The notes: a model not told the origin generated them from the letters alone. A stretch of 64,000 bases of DNA from Schmidtea polychroa (GCA_044892525.1 CM097885.1:28274001-28338000); one strand, 5' to 3'; positions 698 to 59,959 are shown, counted from the first letter of the stretch. Numbers and translations are program-made.

Positions 698-35614
<34,917 letters not shown>

Positions 35615-41649: not shown

Positions 41650-42401
41650 TTATATTTTAATCAAAGGACATTCCATTAAAGAGCTAAATCGATACTTACG
41701 CATGTTTCTATAAAAATTATCAAAACAAAGAGACACATCATTATTCATACTTTCAATTGTAGAGCTGAAATTATTGATAATATCCGTGGCATTTTGAGGA
41801 CGTAGTCTAATAGTGAAGTATCTATTTTTTAGGCAGGAGAATATTTCTTCGATGGGATTCAATTGCGGGCTATAAGGGGGCAGATAAACATGATCAACAT
41901 TATTGTTTTCAAACCACGTAGCAACCTCTCGTGTCTTGTGAAACTTTAAATTATCCATTAGAATGACATTATCAGGAGAAAAATAGCCTAAATTTTTACA
42001 TTCTATCAAAAACTCTAAAAAACAGACTACCATTATATGGACCTTCGACTAATTTAATATACAGAAATTTTTCGTTTGAAATTATCGACAATAAACTAAT
42101 ATTTCTTCCTCTGTTTGTTGGAACAGTTATTGCAGCTGGAGTATTAACTGGGGAATATCCATAATTGGGGACCGTATGCAAATTAAACCCGGTCTCATCC
42201 AGATATAAAATGGCATTATTTCTTATATTTCTGAATTTCAAAGCAAATATTTTTCTTTGCGCAATCAATTCAGGAGATTCTACTTTAATTGGCCTTTTCT
42301 GAAGTCTTTTCCTCGTTAAATTAAGTTTTTTAAAATAGAGAGAAACAGTGGGTTGGCTTATATTAATATTCTCAGTTTCTGAAAAATTAGCAATCCCTGT
42401 T
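41650..42401 (-). pseudogene. Tc1/IS630-family DD34E transposase, catalytic part (interrupted)
   Basis: ILYLDETGFNL ... VILMDNLKFHK ... LPPYSPQLNPIE, with 34 residues between the second D and E. Frameshift near 42020. The N-terminus lies beyond the 14.5 kb insertion. Confidence 0.9.
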
Positions 42402-42744
42402 AGTAGGGAGTTAGTGGCCCGCGGCAGCAATAGGGGGGGGGGGTAAAAAATGTTGCAAACTTTTGATTGCATAACTTTTTCCGTAGACATTTTTTGATTA
42501 CATAATTGTTGCCGTAATGCCCAATGTTTTCTGGGATTTTAAATACAAATTTTTTTTTTTTTTTTTTTTTTTTCAATAAACAAGCCAAGGATAAATATTA
42601 TTTGGGTGGGTCTCCTTGGTCCTGAGAATTTCAATAGAAAAAGGTAGTCTTCAATAAAAAAGCATGGATTTTTCACACTATAGTGAGGGGATCTTCTTGG
42701 TCATGAGAATTTCAATAGAAAAGGTGGTTTACATTAAAAAACGC

Positions 42745-43400
42745 ATAGTAAATTTTTAAAATAAAGTAAATTATGGGTCTAAAATTTAAAAATAAAGTAA
42801 ATGATGGGTCTAAAAATTTAAGTAAATCAAGGTTCAGATTTATTTTTGAAATAAAGTAAATTATGGTCTAAATAAGTAAATTATGGGCTAAGATTTTTCA
42901 ATTAAAGTAAATAATGGTTCTAAAAAATTAAATTACAGTAAATTATGGTCCAAATTTTTAAATTAAAGTAAATTATGGTTCTTAAAAATTAAATTAAAGT
43001 AAATTATGGTTCTTAAAAATTAAATTAAAGTAAATTATGGTCAAAATTTTTGAATTACAGTCCAAAAATTTAAATTAAAGTAAATTATGATCCAAATTTT
43101 TAAATTAAAGTAAATAATGGTTCTAAAAAATTAAATTAAAGTAAATAATGGTCCAAATATTTTAAATTACAGTAAATAATGGTTCTAAAAATTAAATTAC
43201 AGTAAATAATGGTCAAAAATTTTAAAATTAAAGTAAATTATGGTTCTAAAAATTAAATTAAAGTTAATTAAGGTCCAAATTTTAAAATTAAATAATCAAT
43301 GGTAAAAAAAAATTTAAATTAAAGTTAAATAAGTAAATTAAAGTAATAATTTTTAAATAAGTAAATTAAAGTAATGTAATAAGTAAATTAAAGTAAGATT
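42745..43400. repeat. Subterminal ~30-bp tandem repeat array, left arm (mirror ~55940-56590)
   Basis: Degenerate unit AAATTAAAGTAAATTATGGT(T/C)C(T/A)AAA.. repeated many times. Confidence 0.85.
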
Positions 43401-43582
43401 TTTAAATTTATTAACAAAAATAGAAGGTGTTTGAGAATTGAAATTTTTTAATGGAAATTTTAATGAATTATTTTTTAAGTAATTTTTAATAGAAATTTTT
43501 ATGAATAATTTTCAATGGTAATTTTTAATGGAAATTTTAATAGAATAATTTTTAAGATAATTTTTAATGAAAATTTTTATGA

Positions 43583-43668
<86 letters not shown>

Positions 43669-43855
43669 TAATATTAATAATATATCAACCAAATACTATA
43701 CAACACATAAAAAATTAACTAAACACATAAAAATAACTAGACACATAACAAAACATATAAACATTAACTAAACACATAAAAATGAACTAGACACATAACA
43801 AACATAAAAATTTACCAAATAACAAATGTAAAGATATAAAATTTATTCAATAAAA

Positions 43856-46800
43856 TTAGTCCTCATCGGACAAAATAACGTCATCGATATCGATGTCATC
43901 TTCTCCAAAATCTTCATTTAATTCTTCCTCATCTTCTCCATCATTTTCTCCAACATTTTCTGAAACATTTTCTGCAACAATTTCTCCAACATTTTCTCCA
44001 ATATTTAATTCACTTAATCTTACATGCCCATATGCAAGACTAGTATTTTGCCCCACCCAAACCCTTTTGTCATCTTTGTTAGTTAGTGCTATTTTTGTGT
44101 TTTTAATTGTAAAAATTTGATGATTTTTGCTTGTTATTTTAGTCTGAGGAACCGAAAAAATCTGGTTAGTGTTATAACAATCCAGGTATGACTGATGTTT
44201 TATGTCACTACCTTTCAATGTTACACCTTTAGCCTTTTTTGTTTCCTCATCACCCAACAAGCTATAACATTTAGGTCTAAGAAAAACCCACTCCTTATAT
44301 TTAAGACCTTTATTCTCGTCTTTGAACTTTCCAATGACTGAATCAAGGTTCTTACTATATAAGGAATGACAACTATTGTAATTGGAAGTATCCAATAAAT
44401 TATCTCGAACCATTGCAGGTAAAAGAACCTCAAGTTTGCAGTTAATGACTTCGAGGAAAAAAGAATCTGTATCACCTGCAACGATATTAATTTTACAATT
44501 AAACTCATTGCGAAATGATTCCAGATCCTTATATTGCAATTCATACATTCTAAGTTTAGATAGATCAAGTACAGATTGACCAATGTAACTCGGTCTATCT
44601 AAACATATAGAATCGGAATTCAATAGTGCTGCAATTAAATTATCTGCTATTTTAATAGATTTTTTAAAAGTCGGTTTTGACGAATATTTAACTAATTTAC
44701 CGGCAGTTGTACAAAGACGAAGATTCATTCTTCTCTTTAAATTTTCAACTGTTTTGCCGTATAAACTATTATTTAGCAATTTATAATAATTTTTATCTAA
44801 GCTATTTACGCTTTTTGATCTTAATTCGGTATTTGTATCTATATATTTTTTAAAAATTGGTGATTGCTTAAATCTTACACCCCTATTTACACGTGTTACT
44901 TTAACACCAAGTTCCAAATATAATTTTAATAATCTCCAATGAATAACATAATTAGATTTTGGAAGATGAGTTAATAATAATTTTTCAACCTTAGACCCAG
45001 CAGGTTTCATTTTTTCAGCAGCTACAGGGAAATCATCCAACTTATCATGAAGCTCAGAAGGAATTACAAGATCAACTTCAAGTGTGTATCCATAAGACAA
45101 AGATTCAAGATTTAAATTCCTACATTCATCCATTATTTTATCAAATCCATCAAGAACCCAACAAAATTCGCCACAAGGTAATGATTGACTTAAAGCCCAG
45201 CCATAAAGATTATTAATATCTATATATAGTAACTCAGTGTTCTCGTCGGTTTTTACGTAATGCTTATTCACAAAAGTAAGACCGCCTCTTATTCCACCCT
45301 CATAAAAGCTAAACATTTCGTTTTCAGTTATGAGTTCAATTGGTTCATTTAAAGACATTAATGCAGAAGACCAAGACATGCCTGGAATTCCGAAATAATT
45401 CAATGGTTCCAATCTATTGTGAGCAATGGATTTCAACCGAAACTGATGAAAGAAATCAGCCAAAAGAAAACAATCAAGTTTTAGGTAGATCATCATATAA
45501 TCTAATAAAGTTACGCAATTAGTTTCTACCCAAATCTCCTGAGCTTTTTCATACTCAAGCTCAGTGACACCCTCCCAGATTGGTGGTAATTCATAAGTAG
45601 TTTGGAGAATATCTAAAGAAGTGGCGAAATTATAAGGGAAGATTCCTTTTTCACTTACTATGGTGCCAGAAAAAGCAGAATTAGTAAAAGGCAAAGAATT
45701 CAAAGTTTTGACTGCTTTAGCCAAAGAATCATTGACAAATTGATACGAATCAATGAATCTTAGGCTAATTTTACCTAAATGAGCAATCAAAGATATAAAT
45801 TTTTCCGTAGTTATTGGGATGCACCCTAAATTCCAATTTTTAAATTTATTTAATCCATATTTAAGTATATGGTGCATATCGTATCCCTTCAAGTTGTGAA
45901 ATACGATAGGCAAAATTTTATTTATTTTCCTATTTACGTTACATGTGCTACAAGCTGCACCCAAGTATTTCCCCGTAAAATGATCGTGATCTCTAACAGG
46001 ATCGACGATAGATTTCATACAAAGATAACAAACAGATGCACTAACAAATTGACGTTGTTCAATTTTTGTTAATTTCATCATAGGTTTCCTACCCATTTTA
46101 TAATAAAAAGGAAGAACCTTATTTAATGCTATATCCTCTATAGCACTTAAAAAACTCTCGACGCAATCTAAACCTATGAACTGCTGATAAGATTTAGACC
46201 CGTCAAAGTTATTTACAAGTAAAAGACCAGCAGATATTGGCATGTGTCGTTGGAAATGATCATTATCAGAAGGTAAAATAGCCTCAAAATCTGCATAAAC
46301 TACAAAAGGAGGAGTTACTGTTTTCGACCAGTCAGTAAACTGTAATAATTTATTTTGAGGGAAGGTGTAAAGAGTTGTTCCTAATTGATTACGTTTACAT
46401 AATATTTCATGTTTTTCTAGTGCGTGTTTATTATTAAACCCATTCAAACACCGATGGTACCATAATGAACGTATGCGTGTAGGACAACTAGTGTTGATAT
46501 GACAATTCATTAACTTATTTAAATTACTTATAGCAACGTAATGGAAATTGTTTCCTTTATTTAATAATAGTAAATTAATTACAGTTCCATTTAAAACTTT
46601 GGAACGATGTATAATATCTAAATGTGGGTGTTTTAATACGTAATTATCTATTAATTGTTTGTTATTGTCATAAGAAAAAACGTTAATTATTAAGCCTGGA
46701 TTTTTGGCCTCGAATTTTCTAATATCTTTTAATTTCATGGGTAAGTCCAATGGATTATATATTAATTCAGATAAATTATAACTGGATGTCCTATTTCTAG

Positions 46801-47437
46801 CATAACTACTAACCTCATCATATTTTAAAATAGCTAAAATGCTATATAAAAAACATGAATCATCGGTGTTTTTTATATTAATTAAACAATATTTATTTTT
46901 TAGATAAGTAGGTGTTTCAATGAAACTCCTACCACTTAATCTACTTAGCCTACTTATTTTTGTTATGGTGAAATGTATTTCAGTGATATTTTTTATATTC
47001 CAACTGCTTCCTAACTCAGTAATATTAGTAATTTTCTCATTTAATTCCTTAATGCCTTCATCAAAAAATGATGCAGTTAAAGGCTTTGCATAATTTGAGA
47101 TATTATTAACCTTTATTTCCCCGTCTTTTTCAAATTCGATTGTTATTCCGAATTGAATTTTGACGGAGCCTAATTCGTTAATAATATCTCGTAATTTTTT
47201 TATTAGTTGTTCAGGAAATATTATTTCTTTTATATTTAAGTCGCTTGTATTTAAGCTTAATATTTGATGGGTACCTCTTAGATCTTTTTGTATTATTGGA
47301 ACATTTCCACCTATTTGTATTATATTTAATCCATCCCAAGAGTCAAGGGAAATATTATCTAATCCAACCTGGGATTCAACAACCAATCCATCATGGGATT
47401 CGACAACCAATCCATCATTGGATTCCACAAAAGGCAA
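43856..47437 (-). CDS. polB: Protein-primed family B DNA polymerase (Polinton/Maverick pPolB), left copy
   Basis: Exonuclease motifs VYADFE, FHNLKGYD, YLKLD. Polymerase motifs YIDINNLYG, KLLNNSLYGK, AGDTDS. Endonuclease VII-like insert CYLC..DHDHFTGKYLGAACSTCN. The listed start is TTG, so the true start is probably upstream. Confidence 0.93.
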   Translation of the reverse strand: MPFVESNDGLVVESHDGLVVESQVGLDNISLDSWDGLNIIQIGGNVPIIQKDLRGTHQILSLNTSDLNIKEIIFPEQLIKKLRDIINELGSVKIQFGITIEFEKDGEIKVNNISNYAKPLTASFFDEGIKELNEKITNITELGSSWNIKNITEIHFTITKISRLSRLSGRSFIETPTYLKNKYCLINIKNTDDSCFLYSILAILKYDEVSSYARNRTSSYNLSELIYNPLDLPMKLKDIRKFEAKNPGLIINVFSYDNNKQLIDNYVLKHPHLDIIHRSKVLNGTVINLLLLNKGNNFHYVAISNLNKLMNCHINTSCPTRIRSLWYHRCLNGFNNKHALEKHEILCKRNQLGTTLYTFPQNKLLQFTDWSKTVTPPFVVYADFEAILPSDNDHFQRHMPISAGLLLVNNFDGSKSYQQFIGLDCVESFLSAIEDIALNKVLPFYYKMGRKPMMKLTKIEQRQFVSASVCYLCMKSIVDPVRDHDHFTGKYLGAACSTCNVNRKINKILPIVFHNLKGYDMHHILKYGLNKFKNWNLGCIPITTEKFISLIAHLGKISLRFIDSYQFVNDSLAKAVKTLNSLPFTNSAFSGTIVSEKGIFPYNFATSLDILQTTYELPPIWEGVTELEYEKAQEIWVETNCVTLLDYMMIYLKLDCFLLADFFHQFRLKSIAHNRLEPLNYFGIPGMSWSSALMSLNEPIELITENEMFSFYEGGIRGGLTFVNKHYVKTDENTELLYIDINNLYGWALSQSLPCGEFCWVLDGFDKIMDECRNLNLESLSYGYTLEVDLVIPSELHDKLDDFPVAAEKMKPAGSKVEKLLLTHLPKSNYVIHWRLLKLYLELGVKVTRVNRGVRFKQSPIFKKYIDTNTELRSKSVNSLDKNYYKLLNNSLYGKTVENLKRRMNLRLCTTAGKLVKYSSKPTFKKSIKIADNLIAALLNSDSICLDRPSYIGQSVLDLSKLRMYELQYKDLESFRNEFNCKINIVAGDTDSFFLEVINCKLEVLLPAMVRDNLLDTSNYNSCHSLYSKNLDSVIGKFKDENKGLKYKEWVFLRPKCYSLLGDEETKKAKGVTLKGSDIKHQSYLDCYNTNQIFSVPQTKITSKNHQIFTIKNTKIALTNKDDKRVWVGQNTSLAYGHVRLSELNIGENVGEIVAENVSENVGENDGEDEEELNEDFGEDDIDIDDVILSDED

Positions 47438-47479
47438 TCCGACCTGGGATTCAAAAGAAGAAGTATCTAATTTAATTTT

Positions 47480-48197
47480 TTAATTTTTATTATTTTTTTC
47501 TATAGTTGAGGGTCTTTTAAAAACACTATCTTTTTTAAAATTAAACCTATCTAAATGATTTTTATGTTTATTATAAAAAACGCTATATGTTACGGGGTCA
47601 CTAGTCTTACATACGGGACATATAAAATAAGTTTTATTATAATATTTTTTCGTATAATAATTCTCCATTATAGAATGGCAATTATTATCATGTTCTTTCG
47701 ATGAACAATAATTTGGGTAAAGTATACCTATAAAATAAAAATTTAATAAAAAAAATATAATTTAAATGAAATATTTTAGTAAATGTTTACGCAAAAATTT
47801 GCAAATTATTATTATTTTACAAATTTTATTTACTAAAAAATAAAAATTTACTAAATTAAAAATATTAACATTTACTTAAATAAAAAATTATATTAAATTT
47901 CCTTTAAATTATAAAAAGTAATCAATACTTACATTGTAAATTTTCATTTCGATTTATTGACACATTGACATAATTTTTTTCTTTATTCGTATTACCTAAA
48001 TTATTAATTAATTAAATCAATAAATTAAAAATTATGTTTACTTTTTCTTTTCAAATTTCCTTTAATCTTAGATTTTAAATTGTCTTCATTAATATTATCT
48101 AAATTAATTAATAAATTAATTAATAAATAAATTAAAATTTACCAAATTTCTGAATTTTTTCTCGGACATTCATAACGTTTTCTATTAAAGAATTCAT
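47480..48197 (-). CDS. 4-exon leader ORF (140 aa, C2H2-like Zn finger), left copy
   Basis: Mirror of 51173-51890: exons 48197-48143, 48098-48042, 47995-47933, 47727-47480. Confidence 0.7.
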
Positions 48198-48699
48198 TTT
48201 TAAAGGTTAACTATTTGTTAAATGTGACTAATGATTGATTATTGTTTATAGATTATTATTGTTTATAGATTATTATTGTTCATAGGAACAAATTCTAACC
48301 AATCAAAATCAAGGAAGGGTAGGAAAAATTAATTTATTTTAAAACACATTTTGACGCTAAAGTTGACTTATTTAACATTTTCATAATAATTTAATAAAAA
48401 TAATGTGATGAACACACAAAGTAATATCATTTTTCATCAAATTGCAAAACAGTAATAACGTTTTCATAAAATTGTAACAAAGTAATAACATATTTCAGAT
48501 AAATTTTCAACAGTTGTAAAATATTTATCAAATTGTAACTAAAATAATAAAAATATTGCAACAAAGTAATAAAATAATAATGGTAATTAAGACAAATCAA
48601 TACATTATTTCGAAGACGGACAACAAATTAAAAAGAATATTGTAACTAAAATAATAAAAATATTGCAACAAAGTAATAAAATAATACAACATTTTAAAC

Positions 48700-49180
48700 T
48701 CTAGATTAATCCATTTTATAGAAAATTAAATTTTATCTATATAATATATGAATAAATATCCAAGGAAATTACGTTAACGTATAATAAATACAAATTTATC
48801 GTAAAAACATGTGTGTATTACACACAAAACAAGATACATAATTTCTAATCAATCCATTTTATAGAAAATTAAATTTTATCTATATATTATATGAATAAAA
48901 TCCTAAGAAAATTACGTTAACTGTATGAAAAATACAAATTTATCATAAAAACATGTGTGTATTACACACAACATACGAGACATAATTTTTAATCAAGCTA
49001 TTTTATAGAAAATTAAATTTTATCTATATAATATATGAATAAAAATCCAAGAAAATTACGTTAACCGCGCGAAAAACTACAAATTTATTGTAAAAACATG
49101 TGTGCATTACACACAAAGCATCAAACTGAAATTGTAATTGCGCCATGTTGTAGAGAATTAAATTCTGCCTATACATGGTT
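48700..49180. repeat. ~144-bp tandem repeat (3+ copies), left arm (mirror ~50190-50670)
   Basis: Units begin ~48711, 48854, 48998 and partially 49142. Full units contain GTTAAC and TGTGTG(T/C)ATTACACACA dyads. Confidence 0.85.
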
Positions 49181-49231
49181 ACACTTAAATCTCGATCAGA
49201 CATGTGAAAAGAGACATAAAAGATAAAAAAC

Positions 49232-50138
49232 AGTAGAGTAGTATGATGTGGGCCCGCCCGGCCAGGAGCCCGCTCGGCCACATATACCCCCTCCCCCCCG
49301 TGTGTAAAATAATGTTAATAATAATATTTATATATCAGTATATAGATTTTGCACTGGGCTTTAAAATAAGTGTTTGATTAATAAATTCGGATGATGGAAA
49401 CATTACTTTTGGGAAGAAAAAAAGTAGGTCACCGCTGGACCAATTAATTTAAAAAAATTACGTAATAGTTCTAAAAATATTAGGCATCGTTCTAAAAATA
49501 TTAGGCATTGATTACGTAATAGTTCTAAAAATATTAGGCATCGTTCTAAAAATATTTGGCATCGTTCTAAAATTATGACGTAATCGTTCTAAAAATATTT
49601 GGCATCGTTCTAAAAGTATGATGTAATCATTCTAAAAATAATAGACATCGTTCTAAAAATATTTGGCATCATTCTAAAATATTAGACATCATTCTAAAAA
49701 TATTAGGCATCGTTCTAAAAATATTTGGCATCATTCTAAAATATTAGACATCATTCTAAAAATGTGATGAGTCATTGTCTTTGTTCTAAAAATGTGATGA
49801 GTCATCGTATGATAAAAATCTATATCTCATTAGAAAGTTCTTGCACAGAGCTTTAAAATAAGCTATCGATCAATATAATATGTTGGCGGGAACAATAATT
49901 TTTGGGATGAAAAAAAGTAGGTCCCCGCTGGATCACTTAATTTAAAAAAAATTACGTAATAGTTCTAAAAATATTAGGCATCGTTCTAAAAATATTAGTC
50001 ATTGATTACGTAATAGTTCTAAAAATATTAGGCATCGTTCTAAAAAAAAAAAATAAAATTTTTTCCCGGGGGGGGGGAGGGGGTATATGTGATCTGGAGG
50101 GGACATGGCCGGGAGGGGACACATCATACTACTCTACT
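49232..50138. mobile_element. Central 907-bp mini-element with Maverick-like termini (palindrome pivot)
   Basis: AGTAGAGTAGTATGATGTG ... CACATCATACTACTCTACT. Imperfect GC-rich TIRs extend to ~49299/50068. The interior has a duplicated ~230-bp block and 21-bp repeats. Confidence 0.65.
49455..49807. repeat. ~21-bp tandem array CATCGTTCTAAAAATATTAGG
   Basis: Head-to-tail degenerate units with interspersed TTACGTAA and TGAGTCA motifs. A second short block lies at 49950-50045. Confidence 0.9.
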
Positions 50139-51059
50139 GTTTTTTATCTTTTATGTCTCTTTTCACATGTCTGATCGAGATTTAAGTGTAACCATGTATA
50201 GGCAGAATTTAATTCTCTACAACATGGCGCAATTACAATTTCAGTTTGATGCTTTGTGTGTAATGCACACATGTTTTTACAATAAATTTGTAGTTTTTCG
50301 CGCGGTTAACGTAATTTTCTTGGATTTTTATTCATATATTATATAGATAAAATTTAATTTTCTATAAAATAGCTTGATTAAAAATTATGTCTCGTATGTT
50401 GTGTGTAATACACACATGTTTTTATGATAAATTTGTATTTTTCATACAGTTAACGTAATTTTCTTAGGATTTTATTCATATAATATATAGATAAAATTTA
50501 ATTTTCTATAAAATGGATTGATTAGAAATTATGTATCTTGTTTTGTGTGTAATACACACATGTTTTTACGATAAATTTGTATTTATTATACGTTAACGTA
50601 ATTTCCTTGGATATTTATTCATATATTATATAGATAAAATTTAATTTTCTATAAAATGGATTAATCTAGAGTTTAAAATGTTGTATTATTTTATTACTTT
50701 GTTGCAATATTTTTATTATTTTAGTTACAATATTCTTTTTAATTTGTTGTCCGTCTTCGAAATAATGTATTGATTTGTCTTAATTACCATTATTATTTTA
50801 TTACTTTGTTGCAATATTTTTATTATTTTAGTTACAATTTGATAAATATTTTACAACTGTTGAAAATTTATCTGAAATATGTTATTACTTTGTTACAATT
50901 TTATGAAAACGTTATTACTGTTTTGCAATTTGATGAAAAATGATATTACTTTGTGTGTTCATCACATTATTTTTATTAAATTATTATGAAAATGTTAAAT
51001 AAGTCAACTTTAGCGTCAAAATGTGTTTTAAAATAAATTAATTTTTCCTACCCTTCCTT

Positions 51060-51172
51060 GATTTTGATTGGTTAGAATTTGTTCCTATGAACAATAATAA
51101 TCTATAAACAATAATAATCTATAAACAATAATCAATCATTAGTCACATTTAACAAATAGTTAACCTTTAAAA
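51060..51172 (+). promoter_or_regulatory. Candidate promoter of the leader/pPolB transcript (mirror 48198-48310)
   Basis: Reverse CCAAT (GATTGG), three AAACAATAAT repeats and an initiator-like TCATTAGTC ~35 nt before ATG 51173. AATAAA at 55523 lies just after the pPolB stop. Confidence 0.35.
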
Positions 51173-51890
51173 ATGAATTCTTTAATAGAAAACGTTATGA
51201 ATGTCCGAGAAAAAATTCAGAAATTTGGTAAATTTTAATTTATTTATTAATTAATTTATTAATTAATTTAGATAATATTAATGAAGACAATTTAAAATCT
51301 AAGATTAAAGGAAATTTGAAAAGAAAAAGTAAACATAATTTTTAATTTATTGATTTAATTAATTAATAATTTAGGTAATACGAATAAAGAAAAAAATTAT
51401 GTCAATGTGTCAATAAATCGAAATGAAAATTTACAATGTAAGTATTGATTACTTTTTATAATTTAAAGGAAATTTAATATAATTTTTTATTTAAGTAAAT
51501 GTTAATATTTTTAATTTAGTAAATTTTTATTTTTTAGTAAATAAAATTTGTAAAATAATAATAATTTGCAAATTTTTGCGTAAACATTTACTAAAATATT
51601 TCATTTAAATTATATTTTTTTTATTAAATTTTTATTTTATAGGTATACTTTACCCAAATTATTGTTCATCGAAAGAACATGATAATAATTGCCATTCTAT
51701 AATGGAGAATTATTATACGAAAAAATATTATAATAAAACTTATTTTATATGTCCCGTATGTAAGACTAGTGACCCCGTAACATATAGCGTTTTTTATAAT
51801 AAACATAAAAATCATTTAGATAGGTTTAATTTTAAAAAAGATAGTGTTTTTAAAAGACCCTCAACTATAGAAAAAAATAATAAAAATTAA
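51173..51890 (+). CDS. 4-exon leader ORF (140 aa, C2H2-like Zn finger), right copy
   Basis: Exons 51173-51227, 51272-51328, 51375-51437, 51643-51890. Three GT-AG phase-1 introns (44, 46, 205 nt) give an open frame MNSLIENVMNVREKIQKFDNINEDNLK...CPVCKTSDPVTYSVFYNKHKNH...KRPSTIEKNNKN*. Confidence 0.7.
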
Positions 51891-51932
51891 AAAATTAAAT
51901 TAGATACTTCTTCTTTTGAATCCCAGGTCGGA

Positions 51933-54900
51933 TTGCCTTTTGTGGAATCCAATGATGGATTGGTTGTCGAATCCCATGATGGATTGGTTGTTGAATCCCA
52001 GGTTGGATTAGATAATATTTCCCTTGACTCTTGGGATGGATTAAATATAATACAAATAGGTGGAAATGTTCCAATAATACAAAAAGATCTAAGAGGTACC
52101 CATCAAATATTAAGCTTAAATACAAGCGACTTAAATATAAAAGAAATAATATTTCCTGAACAACTAATAAAAAAATTACGAGATATTATTAACGAATTAG
52201 GCTCCGTCAAAATTCAATTCGGAATAACAATCGAATTTGAAAAAGACGGGGAAATAAAGGTTAATAATATCTCAAATTATGCAAAGCCTTTAACTGCATC
52301 ATTTTTTGATGAAGGCATTAAGGAATTAAATGAGAAAATTACTAATATTACTGAGTTAGGAAGCAGTTGGAATATAAAAAATATCACTGAAATACATTTC
52401 ACCATAACAAAAATAAGTAGGCTAAGTAGATTAAGTGGTAGGAGTTTCATTGAAACACCTACTTATCTAAAAAATAAATATTGTTTAATTAATATAAAAA
52501 ACACCGATGATTCATGTTTTTTATATAGCATTTTAGCTATTTTAAAATATGATGAGGTTAGTAGTTATGCTAGAAATAGGACATCCAGTTATAATTTATC
52601 TGAATTAATATATAATCCATTGGACTTACCCATGAAATTAAAAGATATTAGAAAATTCGAGGCCAAAAATCCAGGCTTAATAATTAACGTTTTTTCTTAT
52701 GACAATAACAAACAATTAATAGATAATTACGTATTAAAACACCCACATTTAGATATTATACATCGTTCCAAAGTTTTAAATGGAACTGTAATTAATTTAC
52801 TATTATTAAATAAAGGAAACAATTTCCATTACGTTGCTATAAGTAATTTAAATAAGTTAATGAATTGTCATATCAACACTAGTTGTCCTACACGCATACG
52901 TTCATTATGGTACCATCGGTGTTTGAATGGGTTTAATAATAAACACGCACTAGAAAAACATGAAATATTATGTAAACGTAATCAATTAGGAACAACTCTT
53001 TACACCTTCCCTCAAAATAAATTATTACAGTTTACTGACTGGTCGAAAACAGTAACTCCTCCTTTTGTAGTTTATGCAGATTTTGAGGCTATTTTACCTT
53101 CTGATAATGATCATTTCCAACGACACATGCCAATATCTGCTGGTCTTTTACTTGTAAATAACTTTGACGGGTCTAAATCTTATCAGCAGTTCATAGGTTT
53201 AGATTGCGTCGAGAGTTTTTTAAGTGCTATAGAGGATATAGCATTAAATAAGGTTCTTCCTTTTTATTATAAAATGGGTAGGAAACCTATGATGAAATTA
53301 ACAAAAATTGAACAACGTCAATTTGTTAGTGCATCTGTTTGTTATCTTTGTATGAAATCTATCGTCGATCCTGTTAGAGATCACGATCATTTTACGGGGA
53401 AATACTTGGGTGCAGCTTGTAGCACATGTAACGTAAATAGGAAAATAAATAAAATTTTGCCTATCGTATTTCACAACTTGAAGGGATACGATATGCACCA
53501 TATACTTAAATATGGATTAAATAAATTTAAAAATTGGAATTTAGGGTGCATCCCAATAACTACGGAAAAATTTATATCTTTGATTGCTCATTTAGGTAAA
53601 ATTAGCCTAAGATTCATTGATTCGTATCAATTTGTCAATGATTCTTTGGCTAAAGCAGTCAAAACTTTGAATTCTTTGCCTTTTACTAATTCTGCTTTTT
53701 CTGGCACCATAGTAAGTGAAAAAGGAATCTTCCCTTATAATTTCGCCACTTCTTTAGATATTCTCCAAACTACTTATGAATTACCACCAATCTGGGAGGG
53801 TGTCACTGAGCTTGAGTATGAAAAAGCTCAGGAGATTTGGGTAGAAACTAATTGCGTAACTTTATTAGATTATATGATGATCTACCTAAAACTTGATTGT
53901 TTTCTTTTGGCTGATTTCTTTCATCAGTTTCGGTTGAAATCCATTGCTCACAATAGATTGGAACCATTGAATTATTTCGGAATTCCAGGCATGTCTTGGT
54001 CTTCTGCATTAATGTCTTTAAATGAACCAATTGAACTCATAACTGAAAACGAAATGTTTAGCTTTTATGAGGGTGGAATAAGAGGCGGTCTTACTTTTGT
54101 GAATAAGCATTACGTAAAAACCGACGAGAACACTGAGTTACTATATATAGATATTAATAATCTTTATGGCTGGGCTTTAAGTCAATCATTACCTTGTGGC
54201 GAATTTTGTTGGGTTCTTGATGGATTTGATAAAATAATGGATGAATGTAGGAATTTAAATCTTGAATCTTTGTCTTATGGATACACACTTGAAGTTGATC
54301 TTGTAATTCCTTCTGAGCTTCATGATAAGTTGGATGATTTCCCTGTAGCTGCTGAAAAAATGAAACCTGCTGGGTCTAAGGTTGAAAAATTATTATTAAC
54401 TCATCTTCCAAAATCTAATTATGTTATTCATTGGAGATTATTAAAATTATATTTGGAACTTGGTGTTAAAGTAACACGTGTAAATAGGGGTGTAAGATTT
54501 AAGCAATCACCAATTTTTAAAAAATATATAGATACAAATACCGAATTAAGATCAAAAAGCGTAAATAGCTTAGATAAAAATTATTATAAATTGCTAAATA
54601 ATAGTTTATACGGCAAAACAGTTGAAAATTTAAAGAGAAGAATGAATCTTCGTCTTTGTACAACTGCCGGTAAATTAGTTAAATATTCGTCAAAACCGAC
54701 TTTTAAAAAATCTATTAAAATAGCAGATAATTTAATTGCAGCACTATTGAATTCCGATTCTATATGTTTAGATAGACCGAGTTACATTGGTCAATCTGTA
54801 CTTGATCTATCTAAACTTAGAATGTATGAATTGCAATATAAGGATCTGGAATCATTTCGCAATGAGTTTAATTGTAAAATTAATATCGTTGCAGGTGATA

Positions 54901-55514
54901 CAGATTCTTTTTTCCTCGAAGTCATTAACTGCAAACTTGAGGTTCTTTTACCTGCAATGGTTCGAGATAATTTATTGGATACTTCCAATTACAATAGTTG
55001 TCATTCCTTATATAGTAAGAACCTTGATTCAGTCATTGGAAAGTTCAAAGACGAGAATAAAGGTCTTAAATATAAGGAGTGGGTTTTTCTTAGACCTAAA
55101 TGTTATAGCTTGTTGGGTGATGAGGAAACAAAAAAGGCTAAAGGTGTAACATTGAAAGGTAGTGACATAAAACATCAGTCATACCTGGATTGTTATAACA
55201 CTAACCAGATTTTTTCGGTTCCTCAGACTAAAATAACAAGCAAAAATCATCAAATTTTTACAATTAAAAACACAAAAATAGCACTAACTAACAAAGATGA
55301 CAAAAGGGTTTGGGTGGGGCAAAATACTAGTCTTGCATATGGGCATGTAAGATTAAGTGAATTAAATATTGGAGAAAATGTTGGAGAAATTGTTGCAGAA
55401 AATGTTTCAGAAAATGTTGGAGAAAATGATGGAGAAGATGAGGAAGAATTAAATGAAGATTTTGGAGAAGATGACATCGATATCGATGACGTTATTTTGT
55501 CCGATGAGGACTAA
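51933..55514 (+). CDS. polB: Protein-primed family B DNA polymerase (Polinton/Maverick pPolB), right copy
   Basis: Translation identical to 43856-47437 with the same motifs. The frame is open back to 51891. Confidence 0.93.
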   Translation: MPFVESNDGLVVESHDGLVVESQVGLDNISLDSWDGLNIIQIGGNVPIIQKDLRGTHQILSLNTSDLNIKEIIFPEQLIKKLRDIINELGSVKIQFGITIEFEKDGEIKVNNISNYAKPLTASFFDEGIKELNEKITNITELGSSWNIKNITEIHFTITKISRLSRLSGRSFIETPTYLKNKYCLINIKNTDDSCFLYSILAILKYDEVSSYARNRTSSYNLSELIYNPLDLPMKLKDIRKFEAKNPGLIINVFSYDNNKQLIDNYVLKHPHLDIIHRSKVLNGTVINLLLLNKGNNFHYVAISNLNKLMNCHINTSCPTRIRSLWYHRCLNGFNNKHALEKHEILCKRNQLGTTLYTFPQNKLLQFTDWSKTVTPPFVVYADFEAILPSDNDHFQRHMPISAGLLLVNNFDGSKSYQQFIGLDCVESFLSAIEDIALNKVLPFYYKMGRKPMMKLTKIEQRQFVSASVCYLCMKSIVDPVRDHDHFTGKYLGAACSTCNVNRKINKILPIVFHNLKGYDMHHILKYGLNKFKNWNLGCIPITTEKFISLIAHLGKISLRFIDSYQFVNDSLAKAVKTLNSLPFTNSAFSGTIVSEKGIFPYNFATSLDILQTTYELPPIWEGVTELEYEKAQEIWVETNCVTLLDYMMIYLKLDCFLLADFFHQFRLKSIAHNRLEPLNYFGIPGMSWSSALMSLNEPIELITENEMFSFYEGGIRGGLTFVNKHYVKTDENTELLYIDINNLYGWALSQSLPCGEFCWVLDGFDKIMDECRNLNLESLSYGYTLEVDLVIPSELHDKLDDFPVAAEKMKPAGSKVEKLLLTHLPKSNYVIHWRLLKLYLELGVKVTRVNRGVRFKQSPIFKKYIDTNTELRSKSVNSLDKNYYKLLNNSLYGKTVENLKRRMNLRLCTTAGKLVKYSSKPTFKKSIKIADNLIAALLNSDSICLDRPSYIGQSVLDLSKLRMYELQYKDLESFRNEFNCKINIVAGDTDSFFLEVINCKLEVLLPAMVRDNLLDTSNYNSCHSLYSKNLDSVIGKFKDENKGLKYKEWVFLRPKCYSLLGDEETKKAKGVTLKGSDIKHQSYLDCYNTNQIFSVPQTKITSKNHQIFTIKNTKIALTNKDDKRVWVGQNTSLAYGHVRLSELNIGENVGEIVAENVSENVGENDGEDEEELNEDFGEDDIDIDDVILSDED

Positions 55515-55701
55515 TTTTATTGAATAAATTTTATATCTTTACATTTGTTATTTGGTAAATTTTTATGTTTGTTATGTGTCTAGTTCATTTTTATGTGTTT
55601 AGTTAATGTTTATATGTTTTGTTATGTGTCTAGTTATTTTTATGTGTTTAGTTAATTTTTTATGTGTTGTATAGTATTTGGTTGATATATTATTAATATT
55701 A

Positions 55702-55754
<53 letters not shown>

Positions 55755-56934
55755 TCATAAAAATTTTCATTAAAAATTATCTTAAAAATTATTCTATTAA
55801 AATTTCCATTAAAAATTACCATTGAAAATTATTCATAAAAATTTCTATTAAAAATTACTTAAAAAATAATTCATTAAAATTTCCATTAAAAAATTTCAAT
55901 TCTCAAACACCTTCTATTTTTGTTAATAAATTTAAAAATCTTACTTTAATTTACTTATTACATTACTTTAATTTACTTATTTAAAAATTATTACTTTAAT
56001 TTACTTATTTAACTTTAATTTAAACTTTTTTTTACCATTGATTATTTAATTTTAAAATTTGGACCTTAATTAACTTTAATTTAATTTTTAGAACCATAAT
56101 TTACTTTAATTTTAAAATTTTTGACCATTATTTACTGTAATTTAATTTTTAGAACCATTATTTACTGTAATTTAAAATATTTGGACCATTATTTACTTTA
56201 ATTTAATTTTTTAGAACCATTATTTACTTTAATTTAAAAATTTGGATCATAATTTACTTTAATTTAAATTTTTGGACTGTAATTCAAAAATTTTGACCAT
56301 AATTTACTTTAATTTAATTTTTAAGAACCATAATTTACTTTAATTTAATTTTTAAGAACCATAATTTACTTTAATTTAAAAATTTGGACCATAATTTACT
56401 GTAATTTAATTTTTTAGAACCATTATTTACTTTAATTGAAAAATCTTAGCCCATAATTTACTTATTTAGACCATAATTTACTTTATTTCAAAAATAAATC
56501 TGAACCTTGATTTACTTAAATTTTTAGACCCATCATTTACTTTATTTTTAAATTTTAGACCCATAATTTACTTTATTTTAAAAATTTACTATGCGTTTTT
56601 TAATGTAAACCACCTTTTCTATTGAAATTCTCATGACCAAGAAGATCCCCTCACTATAGTGTGAAAAATCCATGCTTTTTTATTGAAGACTACCTTTTTC
56701 TATTGAAATTCTCAGGACCAAGGAGACCCATCCAAATAATATTTATCCTTGGCTTGTTTATTGAAAAAAAAAAAAAAAAAAAAAAATTTGTATTTAAAAT
56801 CCCAGAAAACATTGGGCATTACGGCAACAATTATGTAATCAAAAAATGGCTACGGAAAAAGTTATGCAATCAAAAGTTTGCAACATTTTTTACCCCCCCC
56901 CCCTATTGCTGCCGCGGGCCACTAACTCCCTACT

Positions 56935-57271
56935 CCTGTTTGGTTAAAGGAATTATCGTGTTGAATGCATTTCCCAACCTTAAGAAATTTTTCTCTAATG
57001 CCAAGAGCTGCTCTTCCAGGTTTCTTGAACTGAATATTTTTTATAAGATCTTCATCGTCAGCCTGTTCAATTTTAGTTAGCCATTTATATTAAGACTTAT
57101 TCGAAATCTTCAACACTCTCGCCATTTTTGCGATGTCGTCACCTTCAGACTTCATATCCTTCAAAAGTTCAAGAATTTTTTGCGTGATTATATTCTTCTT
57201 TTCCTGGGATTATTTGATTGTTCTTCTAAGCCGAGGATATTCGTAAATGCATTTTTGTGTTCAGGACTCAT
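56935..57271 (-). pseudogene. Tc1/IS630 transposase N-terminal HTH part (other half of 41650-42401)
   Basis: MSPEHKNAF.../KNIITQKILELLKDMKSEGDDIAKMARVLKISNKS*YKWL...KKPGR...HDNSFNQTG joins in frame to IANFSETENINISQPTVS once the insertion and one TSD copy are removed. Confidence 0.85.
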
Positions 57272-59959
57272 GTGCTCTTTATGATTTTTCTTTATAATGA
57301 TTAATAAATTCTTTATATTGATTAATAAATTCTTTATAATTATTAATAACCCTGTAATTGAAAGGTATATCATGAAGTTACTAATGAAAGCACAAAATTT
57401 AATAAAATAACCTATAATAATTTATAATTATAATTAATATGAATATTTTTAATAATTAATTTATTGATGTATTTTCGCGATTAATTTACAAATTAATTTA
57501 TTAAATATTTATTAAATGTTAATTGGTTTTTTAAAAATCCTTTTTATAATTGAGTCCTCAGAAATTTATTGTGATATTTAATTAAGCATTCTTGAAGCGA
57601 ATTCACTAGAGGCATGATATTGGAAAATAATTTTCAGGTTTCCATATATCTTGCAGTCTGAATTTTATATTTTATGTAGGTGTGAAATTAATTTTATCTG
57701 TTTGCAATTAAAAAAGCATTTCATAAAACATTTTGTGAATTTGAACAGTTTTTTTATTTCTAGAAATAATATTAATAAAATAATTTATAATTTTGATAAA
57801 ACACGAAAAAGAAAATAAAAAATAATTAATCCAATTAAATGCTGTATGTTTAGAAATGTCCGATATTTGAGAATGGTTTTCCTAATTGAAATTTTAAATT
57901 CTTTCGATTTTTAGATATATTTTTCCAGATTCTTTGCCATTTTCAGAAACTATTTAAAAGTTTTTAAGTGTTTGAGGAAAAAGGAACTCGATATATGTTT
58001 TTTGGAAATATCTCTTGAAGATAGAATCTCCCATACGTTTATTTTCAAGAAAAAATATATGATTGCTTCTCAAATTGTGATATTCGAAGATTACATTTAA
58101 AGGAACTTCGATGGACGCTTGAGATAGAGAAGATTCAGCGAGGAGAAATAACAGGTCAGCTATCATTGATTCGGGTAATGTTATATGAGGTTATTGGTAG
58201 TGATCTTTTTGGTTTATGTATAAAATGGTTAATAATTTATCTGATGATTGGTAACATTTGGTGATTGGTAACATTTCTTAACGAAATAAAAAATTAATTA
58301 ATTTAAGAAAGATATTTGGTGTTTTTATATTTAATGTTGATAATACAATTGTCAATCTTAGTGATATAGATCTTAATTCTGATGAAATTAATGTTCTGAA
58401 GTTCAGACCTAAACATGGTATTAGACATCGTATTAATGACCATTGGTTTATGCATTATAAGAACTTTTTTCCAATTTCACCACTGATTTTTTTCCATTGA
58501 ATTTATTATAATGAGCTTGAAGACTATAAATCAGTAATATATCGATGTTTTTGATATTCACGAATTTTCGGCACTGCCAGCAAACTTTGGTCCCAACCTC
58601 TGAGGATTAGCACACAACATTAGCATTTAATTAAAAAATATAGGCTACCATTATTCGGCTTTTCAATTTTATTAGTAACAGTTACTATTGAAATAAATAT
58701 AGTAGATTTGAATTGTATTTTTTTTACTTTTGTTAAAATTTGGTTTTATCATTTTGAAATATTTAATAAAAATATTCTTTAAATTTTGTTTATTACATTT
58801 ATTAAAAATTTTACTTGAAGAGTTTTTTTGATTTTTTCAATAAATGTTGCTTGGTGGTGTCTAATAATGTTTTTCTTAAAGAAGGGGATCGCAGTCCAAA
58901 AAAGTTTGCGCATCACTGGACTAGGAGACGAGGCCCGAAGAGAATCTAGTTGAAAGGCCGTGCATGGAGGAAATTCTATATGGAATCCTGAAATCAGGTA
59001 TTTTAAATCAATGAGCCGAATCAAACAAATGAGCTCCAAGCTTGGAAGGAAGAACAAATGGCAGGTGAATCTTGCCGGGATAGGGAGAAAACAAAGCTAC
59101 CAGATATATTTACTGACTTGTCATAATCCAATATGAATATGCCTCTTTCTAAATAAATGTAATATGAAAGCAATAGCCTTAGTTTCTTTTGTTTATCAAG
59201 TTTTTATTAGTAAATTTTAAGTAAAACTTTAATAAAACATGTTTCTGTTTAATTTTTTTTGTACTGTATGTTGAGGAATTAGAACGATGAATCAACAGAA
59301 TGTTGTGATGTATAGAGAATGAATAACAAGATATAAGAAGAGGAGAGGGGAAAAACACTAACCGACTACTCAGGAATTGACATTTACAATTTTGTTGCAA
59401 ATAAATATCGAAATTTTGAATAATCAAACTTAAGTCAGTTTGTTGCCTCGGTAAGATATTGTAAATTATTGTTAATTTAAGAGGAACGTAGGGCCGAGAA
59501 ACTCTTAGCAAATTTGCATTTATTATCTAGGAAAGGGTAGAATTCAAACGAAAATAAAACGGAATCAAATTGCCAATAAACATTTAAATCATAATATCAA
59601 AGGATATAAAAGCTTTCCTTAAATATTCTTATTAAATTTTTAAACATTTAAACAATTAAATATTTTAAATTAACTCTAAACTATATTTTAAATTTAACCA
59701 GCATTTAGATCAAATGTCAGAATTAAATATGAATCGGCTTCAATAAAATTGTTAGAATATTATAAAAATTGTTTTAATATTGATAAATTGTTGAGAAATA
59801 TTTTTTTGAATAAACTTGTGAAAAATTTGAATTCCAATAATTATGAAAATTAATGATGAAAATGAATACGATATTATCGCGATTAACAATCTACATAAAC
59901 TGAGGAGTACCGTTTGGAAATAAGGCTACTCAAGAGTAAGATTCAACAACTAGAAACAG

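Follow-up and report, generated by a model that had tools for sequence, protein, structure and literature searches.

A palindromic Polinton derivative in Schmidtea polychroa with a likely dead copy of a polymerase gene predicted to contain short introns

The element and its polymerase genes

The window, the whole 64,000-nt stretch of Schmidtea polychroa DNA analysed here, contains a palindromic element of 14,533 bp at 42402-56934 with two arms of ~6.9 kb each. Its inverted-repeat tips read AGTAGGG...CCCTACT and the 6-bp duplication CCTGTT flanks it on both sides; terminal inverted repeats starting with AG or AGT and a 6-bp target-site duplication are both Polinton traits. The element sits inside a decayed Tc1/mariner-like transposase gene with a DDE_3 match (41650-42401 and 56941-57300, minus strand). 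Removing it together with one CCTGTT leaves a continuous Tc1/mariner-like frame, and since the empty site restores the host transposase frame, we regard it as a true insertion. Repeats excluded, the only ORFs of at least 150 aa inside the element are two frames of a protein-primed family B polymerase (pPolB). No RVE integrase, packaging ATPase, protease or capsid ORF, the core set of Polintons, was found inside the element, and because these genes are absent we class it as a non-autonomous Polinton derivative and not as a complete Polinton. A search of a viral-contig collection returned no relative. The features discussed below are as follows.

42396..42401, no strand: left copy of the 6-bp target-site duplication, CCTGTT
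42402..56934, no strand: palindromic polymerase-only Polinton derivative with AGT...ACT ends and arms of ~6.9 kb
43856..48197, minus strand: second, identical leader and pPolB gene in the left arm, with its stop at 47480-47482
49300..50070, no strand: non-palindromic centre of 771 nt with an internal direct duplication
51104..51126, plus strand: two promoter-like ATAAAC boxes, 69 and 52 nt before ATG 51173
51173..51227, plus strand: predicted exon 1, with the start ATG
51228..51271, plus strand: predicted intron 1, 44 nt, phase 1, GC 5%, T 57%
51272..51328, plus strand: predicted exon 2; 51300, the one listed site where other copies differ, is a third codon position
51329..51374, plus strand: predicted intron 2, 46 nt, phase 1; the other copies' indel at 51352 lies inside
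51375..51437, plus strand: predicted exon 3, whose last base opens the codon of the first leader Cys; difference 51391 is at a third position
51438..51642, plus strand: predicted intron 3, 205 nt, phase 1, or two shorter introns around a micro-exon; indels 51452 and 51614 lie inside
51643..51887, plus strand: coding leader, from alignments and a relative's leader model, with C-x6-C-x4-H-x3-C, CxxC-x12-H-x2-H and, after these, the opening half of a basic NLS-like stretch
51888..51890, plus strand: TAA nonsense codon, rare among family copies in the contig comparison
51891..55514, plus strand: rest of pPolB, with a predicted terminal-protein domain, vOTU (DDSCFLY, FHY), an Endonuclease_7-like insert, and exonuclease and polymerase motifs
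56935..56940, no strand: right copy of the target-site duplication, CCTGTT

The two arms are identical over 43616-49250, with no difference in 5.6 kb. Their inner ends differ by 11 substitutions and the outer 1.2 kb by three substitutions and two repeat lengths, all of these outer differences falling in 42402-43615 and 55755-56934. The boundary between the outer 1.2 kb and the identical 5.6 kb that follows may mark the original length of the inverted repeat, and assembly polishing could account for part of the arm identity. Non-coding parts of the arms hold tandem arrays of ~144 bp and ~31 bp (48636-49211, 50149-50724, 42750-43325 and 56012-56587).

Read from ATG 51173, predicted exons of 55, 57, 63 and 248 nt encode a leader of 140 aa that ends at TAA 51888-51890. 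The pPolB ORF of 1207 codons follows directly and in the same frame, and leader and pPolB together, with an X at the stop, amount to 1348 aa. Our recomputed coordinates bear out the original prediction, made from the sequence alone, of three phase-1 GT-AG introns of 44, 46 and 205 nt that build a 140-aa ORF with CPVC-x12-H-x2-H, of a stop lying in the pPolB frame of a ~1348-aa protein, and of the same stop at 47480-47482 in the left arm, where the arms are identical. It had also given the pPolB ORF as free of ATG for ~230 codons; the first Met is codon 248, from which a frame of 960 codons runs.

We applied the domain scheme of PMC11161782 to pPolB, placing the vOTU Cys motif at ORF residues 206-212. 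The window protein shows 44-60% identity to each of 12 database proteins, eight of which carry a precomputed PF03175 assignment; these matches and the motifs identify it as a protein-primed family B polymerase. Scanned directly against Pfam, it matched only Endonuclease_7 and Arif-1, both below cut-off.

The stop codon between leader and polymerase

Contigs from four of 24 listed sequencing runs (X2, X5, X11 and X14) were aligned to 50900-53900. Three of the runs cover position 51888, and in these 99-100% of the summed depth shows a base other than that of the window: 3977.7 of 4005.2 in X2 (3 contigs), 70794.7 of 71541.8 in X5 (21 contigs) and 40.5 of 40.5 in X11 (2 contigs); X14, with 12 of 30 bins, does not reach the site. 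Summed contig depth is not copy number, so these figures do not establish that a single copy carries the stop. One X2 contig spanning 51753-51928 departs from the window at only two letters, and near-identical copies without the stop thus exist. Among the best 40 of 336 differing sites, 38 are coding under the intron model and 23 of those 38 are third positions (p 0.0005), an excess to be expected where a family is under selection. The window copy has a further rare change, at 52912, that affects a residue identical in all ten aligned relatives and points to decay of this copy.

The leader motif occurs in nine of 71 metagenome loci, and the stop is absent from all nine. In six of them the leader runs on for 768-1295 codons without a stop; in L029, L030 and L035 it joins pPolB via short introns. 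The proteins P0001, P0002, P0009 and P0011 likewise have the CxxC..H..H motif in frame with the polymerase, and in P0001 an equally spaced counterpart of the basic stretch around the X can be read by eye. We conclude that TAA 51888-51890 is very probably an ordinary nonsense lesion, present in one or a few copies, and not a readthrough switch. Of the two explanations put forward in the original prediction, a nonsense mutation that predates the duplication and leaves both polymerase copies dead is therefore the one supported: other copies lack the stop, and relatives have a single open frame. Its alternative, in which programmed readthrough or reinitiation limits polymerase output, is not supported, given those same copies and the relatives with leader and pPolB in one frame.

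Readthrough has in its favour that the frame beyond the stop keeps all catalytic motifs and that the stop stands in both arms. Viral polymerase genes expressed in this way (MuLV gag-pol, alphavirus nsP3-nsP4, TMV replicase) keep their stop across isolates and set it in a leaky context, such contexts being TGA-C and TAG-CAR-YYA. The window gene resembles them in that one frame holds a short upstream protein and then a polymerase, parted by a single stop; unlike theirs, its stop is rare among copies and reads TAA-A, with AAA as the following codon, which is not leaky. A sense codon at this position in other copies had been named beforehand among the observations that would refute readthrough; at least 99% of the depth in three runs has another base there, and the stop is absent from all nine loci with the leader motif. 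Its presence in both arms is explained by their full identity over 5.6 kb. We consider programmed readthrough extremely improbable, and give just as little credence to reinitiation, or a start downstream of the stop, as the source of a working polymerase. The 960-codon frame after the codon-248 ATG does hold the exonuclease and polymerase motifs, but this start would leave out the vOTU Cys motif as well as the region that matches, by position, the terminal-protein domain, which is needed for priming (PMC11161782).

A fourth intron that removes the stop would leave the polymerase intact and the base at 51888 neutral. In-frame donor and acceptor pairs for it are present (51844-51903 or 51760-51903 in phase 1; donors 51756, 51777, 51789 or 51846 to 51926 in phase 0), and three loci (L029, L030 and L035) have introns between leader and core. 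The spliced aligner took the 60-nt 51844-51903 in preference to a stop penalty, a choice that we attribute to that penalty. Set against this, the composition of the six candidates (T 0.28-0.36, A 0.44-0.55) departs from that of the 14 introns predicted in the family (T 0.46-0.58, A 0.25-0.44), the stretch that would be skipped has an equally spaced coding counterpart in P0001, and the longer options would remove the conserved CxxC..H..H motif. A fourth intron is accordingly improbable, if slightly less so than either readthrough or reinitiation.

Predicted introns and the leader

The original prediction of a spliced leader with a zinc-finger motif, and of an intron-containing pPolB as notable in itself, is supported by homology, by a promoter-like box and by introns in relatives, and we consider the three predicted introns likely to be real. 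They have GT-AG ends and a T-rich body (T 0.50-0.57), as expected of U2 introns. Relatives' proteins open with C-x5/6-C-x4/5-H-x3/7-C, the first Cys being present in nine of nine relative rows. In the window this Cys is formed only by joining 51437 to 51643, and ahead of it the frame, if left unspliced, offers no Met. Splicing of intron 3 would restore the conserved protein; the protein test applies to intron 3 only. Under family-like intron filters, every one of the eight open models of 51100-51642 includes introns 1 and 2 and takes 51438 as a donor. In six of the eight, intron 3 is broken in two by a micro-exon, which leaves its exact form less certain, and the spliced aligner, run on the window, split intron 3 differently from the three-intron model. 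Dinucleotide shuffles yielded any model in 51 of 500 cases, a model with the Cys in 24, and at least three introns together with the junction Cys in none; because shuffling erases the contrast in composition between exon and intron, this is a lenient control. An ATAAAC box lies 33-51 nt before six of ten relative starts (background, 0.075 per 120 nt).

The stop could also be a nonsense mutation in an unspliced gene that begins at ATG 51702, the introns being chance features of AT-rich DNA. P0001, P0002 and P0009 do begin at a Met aligned with 51702. Nothing in the relatives corresponds to exons 1-3; their proteins begin 2-7 residues ahead of the first Cys. None of the 15 contig joints compared (of 25) matches one of the three introns; in that comparison 51231-51275 was skipped as a repeat, 51102-51606 was thinly covered and the RNA status of the runs was presumed. 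The three protein starts, however, probably reflect gene calling that is blind to introns, and the conserved motif begins before that Met in the nine loci for which there is DNA. Of the four motif ligands in the window, three have their codons 5' of 51702, and the first is created only by splicing. The ATAAAC boxes precede 51173, and the 120 nt before 51702 contain none; nor did any of the 500 shuffles reproduce the intron structure with its Cys. We therefore judge an unspliced start unlikely, while giving it more weight than the alternatives above, and prefer the three-intron gene. All three listed indels of other copies in 51173-51642 fall inside introns, although this is weak (p about 0.25). 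One X5 contig has a changed donor G in intron 1.

Introns in relatives were predicted from DNA only, with a phase-blind spliced aligner and a profile built without the window, over the 71 metagenome loci. The aligner placed 14 introns in seven loci, 13 of them in six close loci and one in the distant L055; the intron-bearing close loci are partly near-identical and not all independent. Four loci (L010, L013, L017 and L020) have two introns at shared sites within conserved sequence. Lengths are 42-53 nt. L029 has five further introns of 42-46 nt, in phases 1, 0, 0, 0 and 0. We had considered a rule that all introns of the clade are phase 1, as are 13 of 13 in the close loci, and dropped it given these phases and an intron in the protease gene that looks phase 2 by eye; phase 1 is common, not a rule. 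The apparent protease-gene intron is short and follows the first codon and two bases in L005 (~4990-5030), L012 (~4420-4465) and L008 (~5600-5645). Further short, AT-rich GT-AG segments lie upstream of the pPolB core in L012 (1-380) and L019 (1-470).

A polymerase-core tree of 37 rows (selected loci, a subset of the 71, and proteins) puts intron-bearing genes on three branches: the window's clade, L029, and a group of L010, L013, L017, L020, L030, L035, L012 and L019. Intron-free genes with leader and core (L003, L004, L005, L008, L015 and L016) are interspersed with these branches, which suggests that introns were repeatedly gained or lost among relatives, in either direction. Introns in pPolB on three branches would also suggest that a virus-like element is expressed in the nucleus in dependence on the spliceosome, and that its introns are still turning over.

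The leader of L003 was modelled, with moderate confidence, as helix, hairpin, helix (pLDDT 78.5). The leader matches no Pfam family at curated cut-off and no PDB sequence, and Foldseek returned no match in PDB or BFVD; a query with the N-terminal 200 residues, run against 673 candidates, gave no match at E up to 0.001. From the motifs, we infer that the leader may bind zinc and that the basic stretch may serve as an NLS. A free-standing second copy of the leader domain occurs in L008 (52-735), just upstream of the leader-bearing pPolB gene.

Possible origin and relation to known elements

Taken together, the window gene is likely a dead copy of a Polinton polymerase gene with introns. Intact members of the family would be transcribed from a point shortly downstream of the ATAAAC boxes, and the host spliceosome would remove three short introns from the transcript. 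The single product of ~1350 aa would begin with two predicted zinc-binding motifs and a basic NLS-like stretch, followed by terminal protein, vOTU, exonuclease and polymerase. With the nonsense change gained by the window copy, translation would end at codon 141, so that neither arm would yield polymerase. The stop would stand in both arms through copying, the inner 5.6 kb of one arm having most likely been taken from the other, as indicated by the confinement of all three outer substitutions to the outer 1.2 kb. This may have happened by copy-back while the element replicated as a hairpin or panhandle, or by conversion at a later time. As the element has no integrase gene, it would have been inserted in trans by a complete Polinton. 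Linear replicons can give rise to copy-back or hairpin deletion derivatives, of which a derivative of the kalilo plasmid is reportedly an example. The element is alike in that one end of a protein-primed linear element is duplicated as a giant inverted repeat, and differs in being chromosomally integrated with a target duplication. A palindrome with identical inner arms and slightly differing outer ends would be a record of how these elements may replicate.

The element shares pPolB, AGT inverted repeats and a 6-bp duplication with animal Polintons or Mavericks, also treated as polintoviruses and adintoviruses (PMC8097293, PMC8502044). It differs from them in having no integrase, ATPase, protease or capsid ORF and in repeats grown to 6.9 kb that enclose pPolB. 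Intact vertebrate Mavericks are described as intronless, and 96% of vertebrate Maverick loci as decayed by stops and frameshifts (PMC8097293). For a decayed Polinton copy a stop is nothing out of the ordinary; the unusual part would be the short host-type introns, three predicted in the window gene, in contrast to the intronless vertebrate elements, and others of 42-53 nt predicted from DNA in its relatives. With the TP-vOTU-pPolB polyprotein of polintons (PMC11161782) and the HNH-bearing pPolB2 of nematode and oomycete Polintons (PMC10748475), the window protein has in common vOTU Cys and His, exonuclease and polymerase motifs and an Endonuclease_7-like insert. It differs from them in an extra leader of ~80 aa with two predicted zinc motifs before the terminal-protein region; the word 'zinc' is absent from the main text of PMC11161782.

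Introner insertions are on record within dinoflagellate eupolintoviral elements (PMC12166617). In a planarian, knockdown of PIWI de-represses Polintons (PMC8532177). Our literature search, for which sources were available in part and with Repbase annotations and supplements outside its scope, found no spliceosomal introns in Polinton pPolB, no Polinton readthrough and no palindromic polymerase-only copies, which does not establish their absence from print. In the parts available, spliceosomal introns in Polinton pPolB are not described in PMC6431247, PMC12166617, PMC8502044, PMC10748475, PMC8532177, PMC10175614, PMC11296320, PMC11071296 or PMC12220804.

On balance, and with somewhat more confidence for than against, we favour the existence of an animal Polinton clade that expresses pPolB, and likely its protease too, from genes with very short spliceosomal introns gained and lost by lineage, that places an undescribed leader with twin zinc motifs before the terminal-protein domain, and that forms integrated, palindromic, polymerase-only satellites by copy-back. 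If so, ORF-based surveys would truncate or miss such polymerases, with ORF callers cutting off the N-terminus. Judged from sequence, the introns and the undescribed leader would be a modest novelty, and the palindromic polymerase-only form would also be new.

Two close relatives, L005 and L012, have matches to an rve integrase and an A32-type ATPase (Pox_A32), and L029 has a weak Peptidase_C5 match; the putative capsid ORFs of relatives have no Pfam match. L005 (11336-11779, minus strand) and L012 (10324-10764, minus strand) also encode a short TBP-family protein (PF00352, E 5e-18 and 2e-17), and the L005 Polinton contig has at its end a ubiquitin-conjugating (E2) gene (13477-13974, plus strand; UQ_con E 2e-12). 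Elsewhere in the window, a decayed fragment at 3381-3644 (plus strand) resembles the Hsp90 N-terminal domain. A second Polinton-type element, ~1.8 kb long and gene-less, lies at 10378-12192 with short inverted ends and the 6-bp duplication CAGGGA. It has two blocks in common with the large element, one promoter-like (10926-11008 with 50966-51045) and one from the centre (11369-11504 with 49308-49442).
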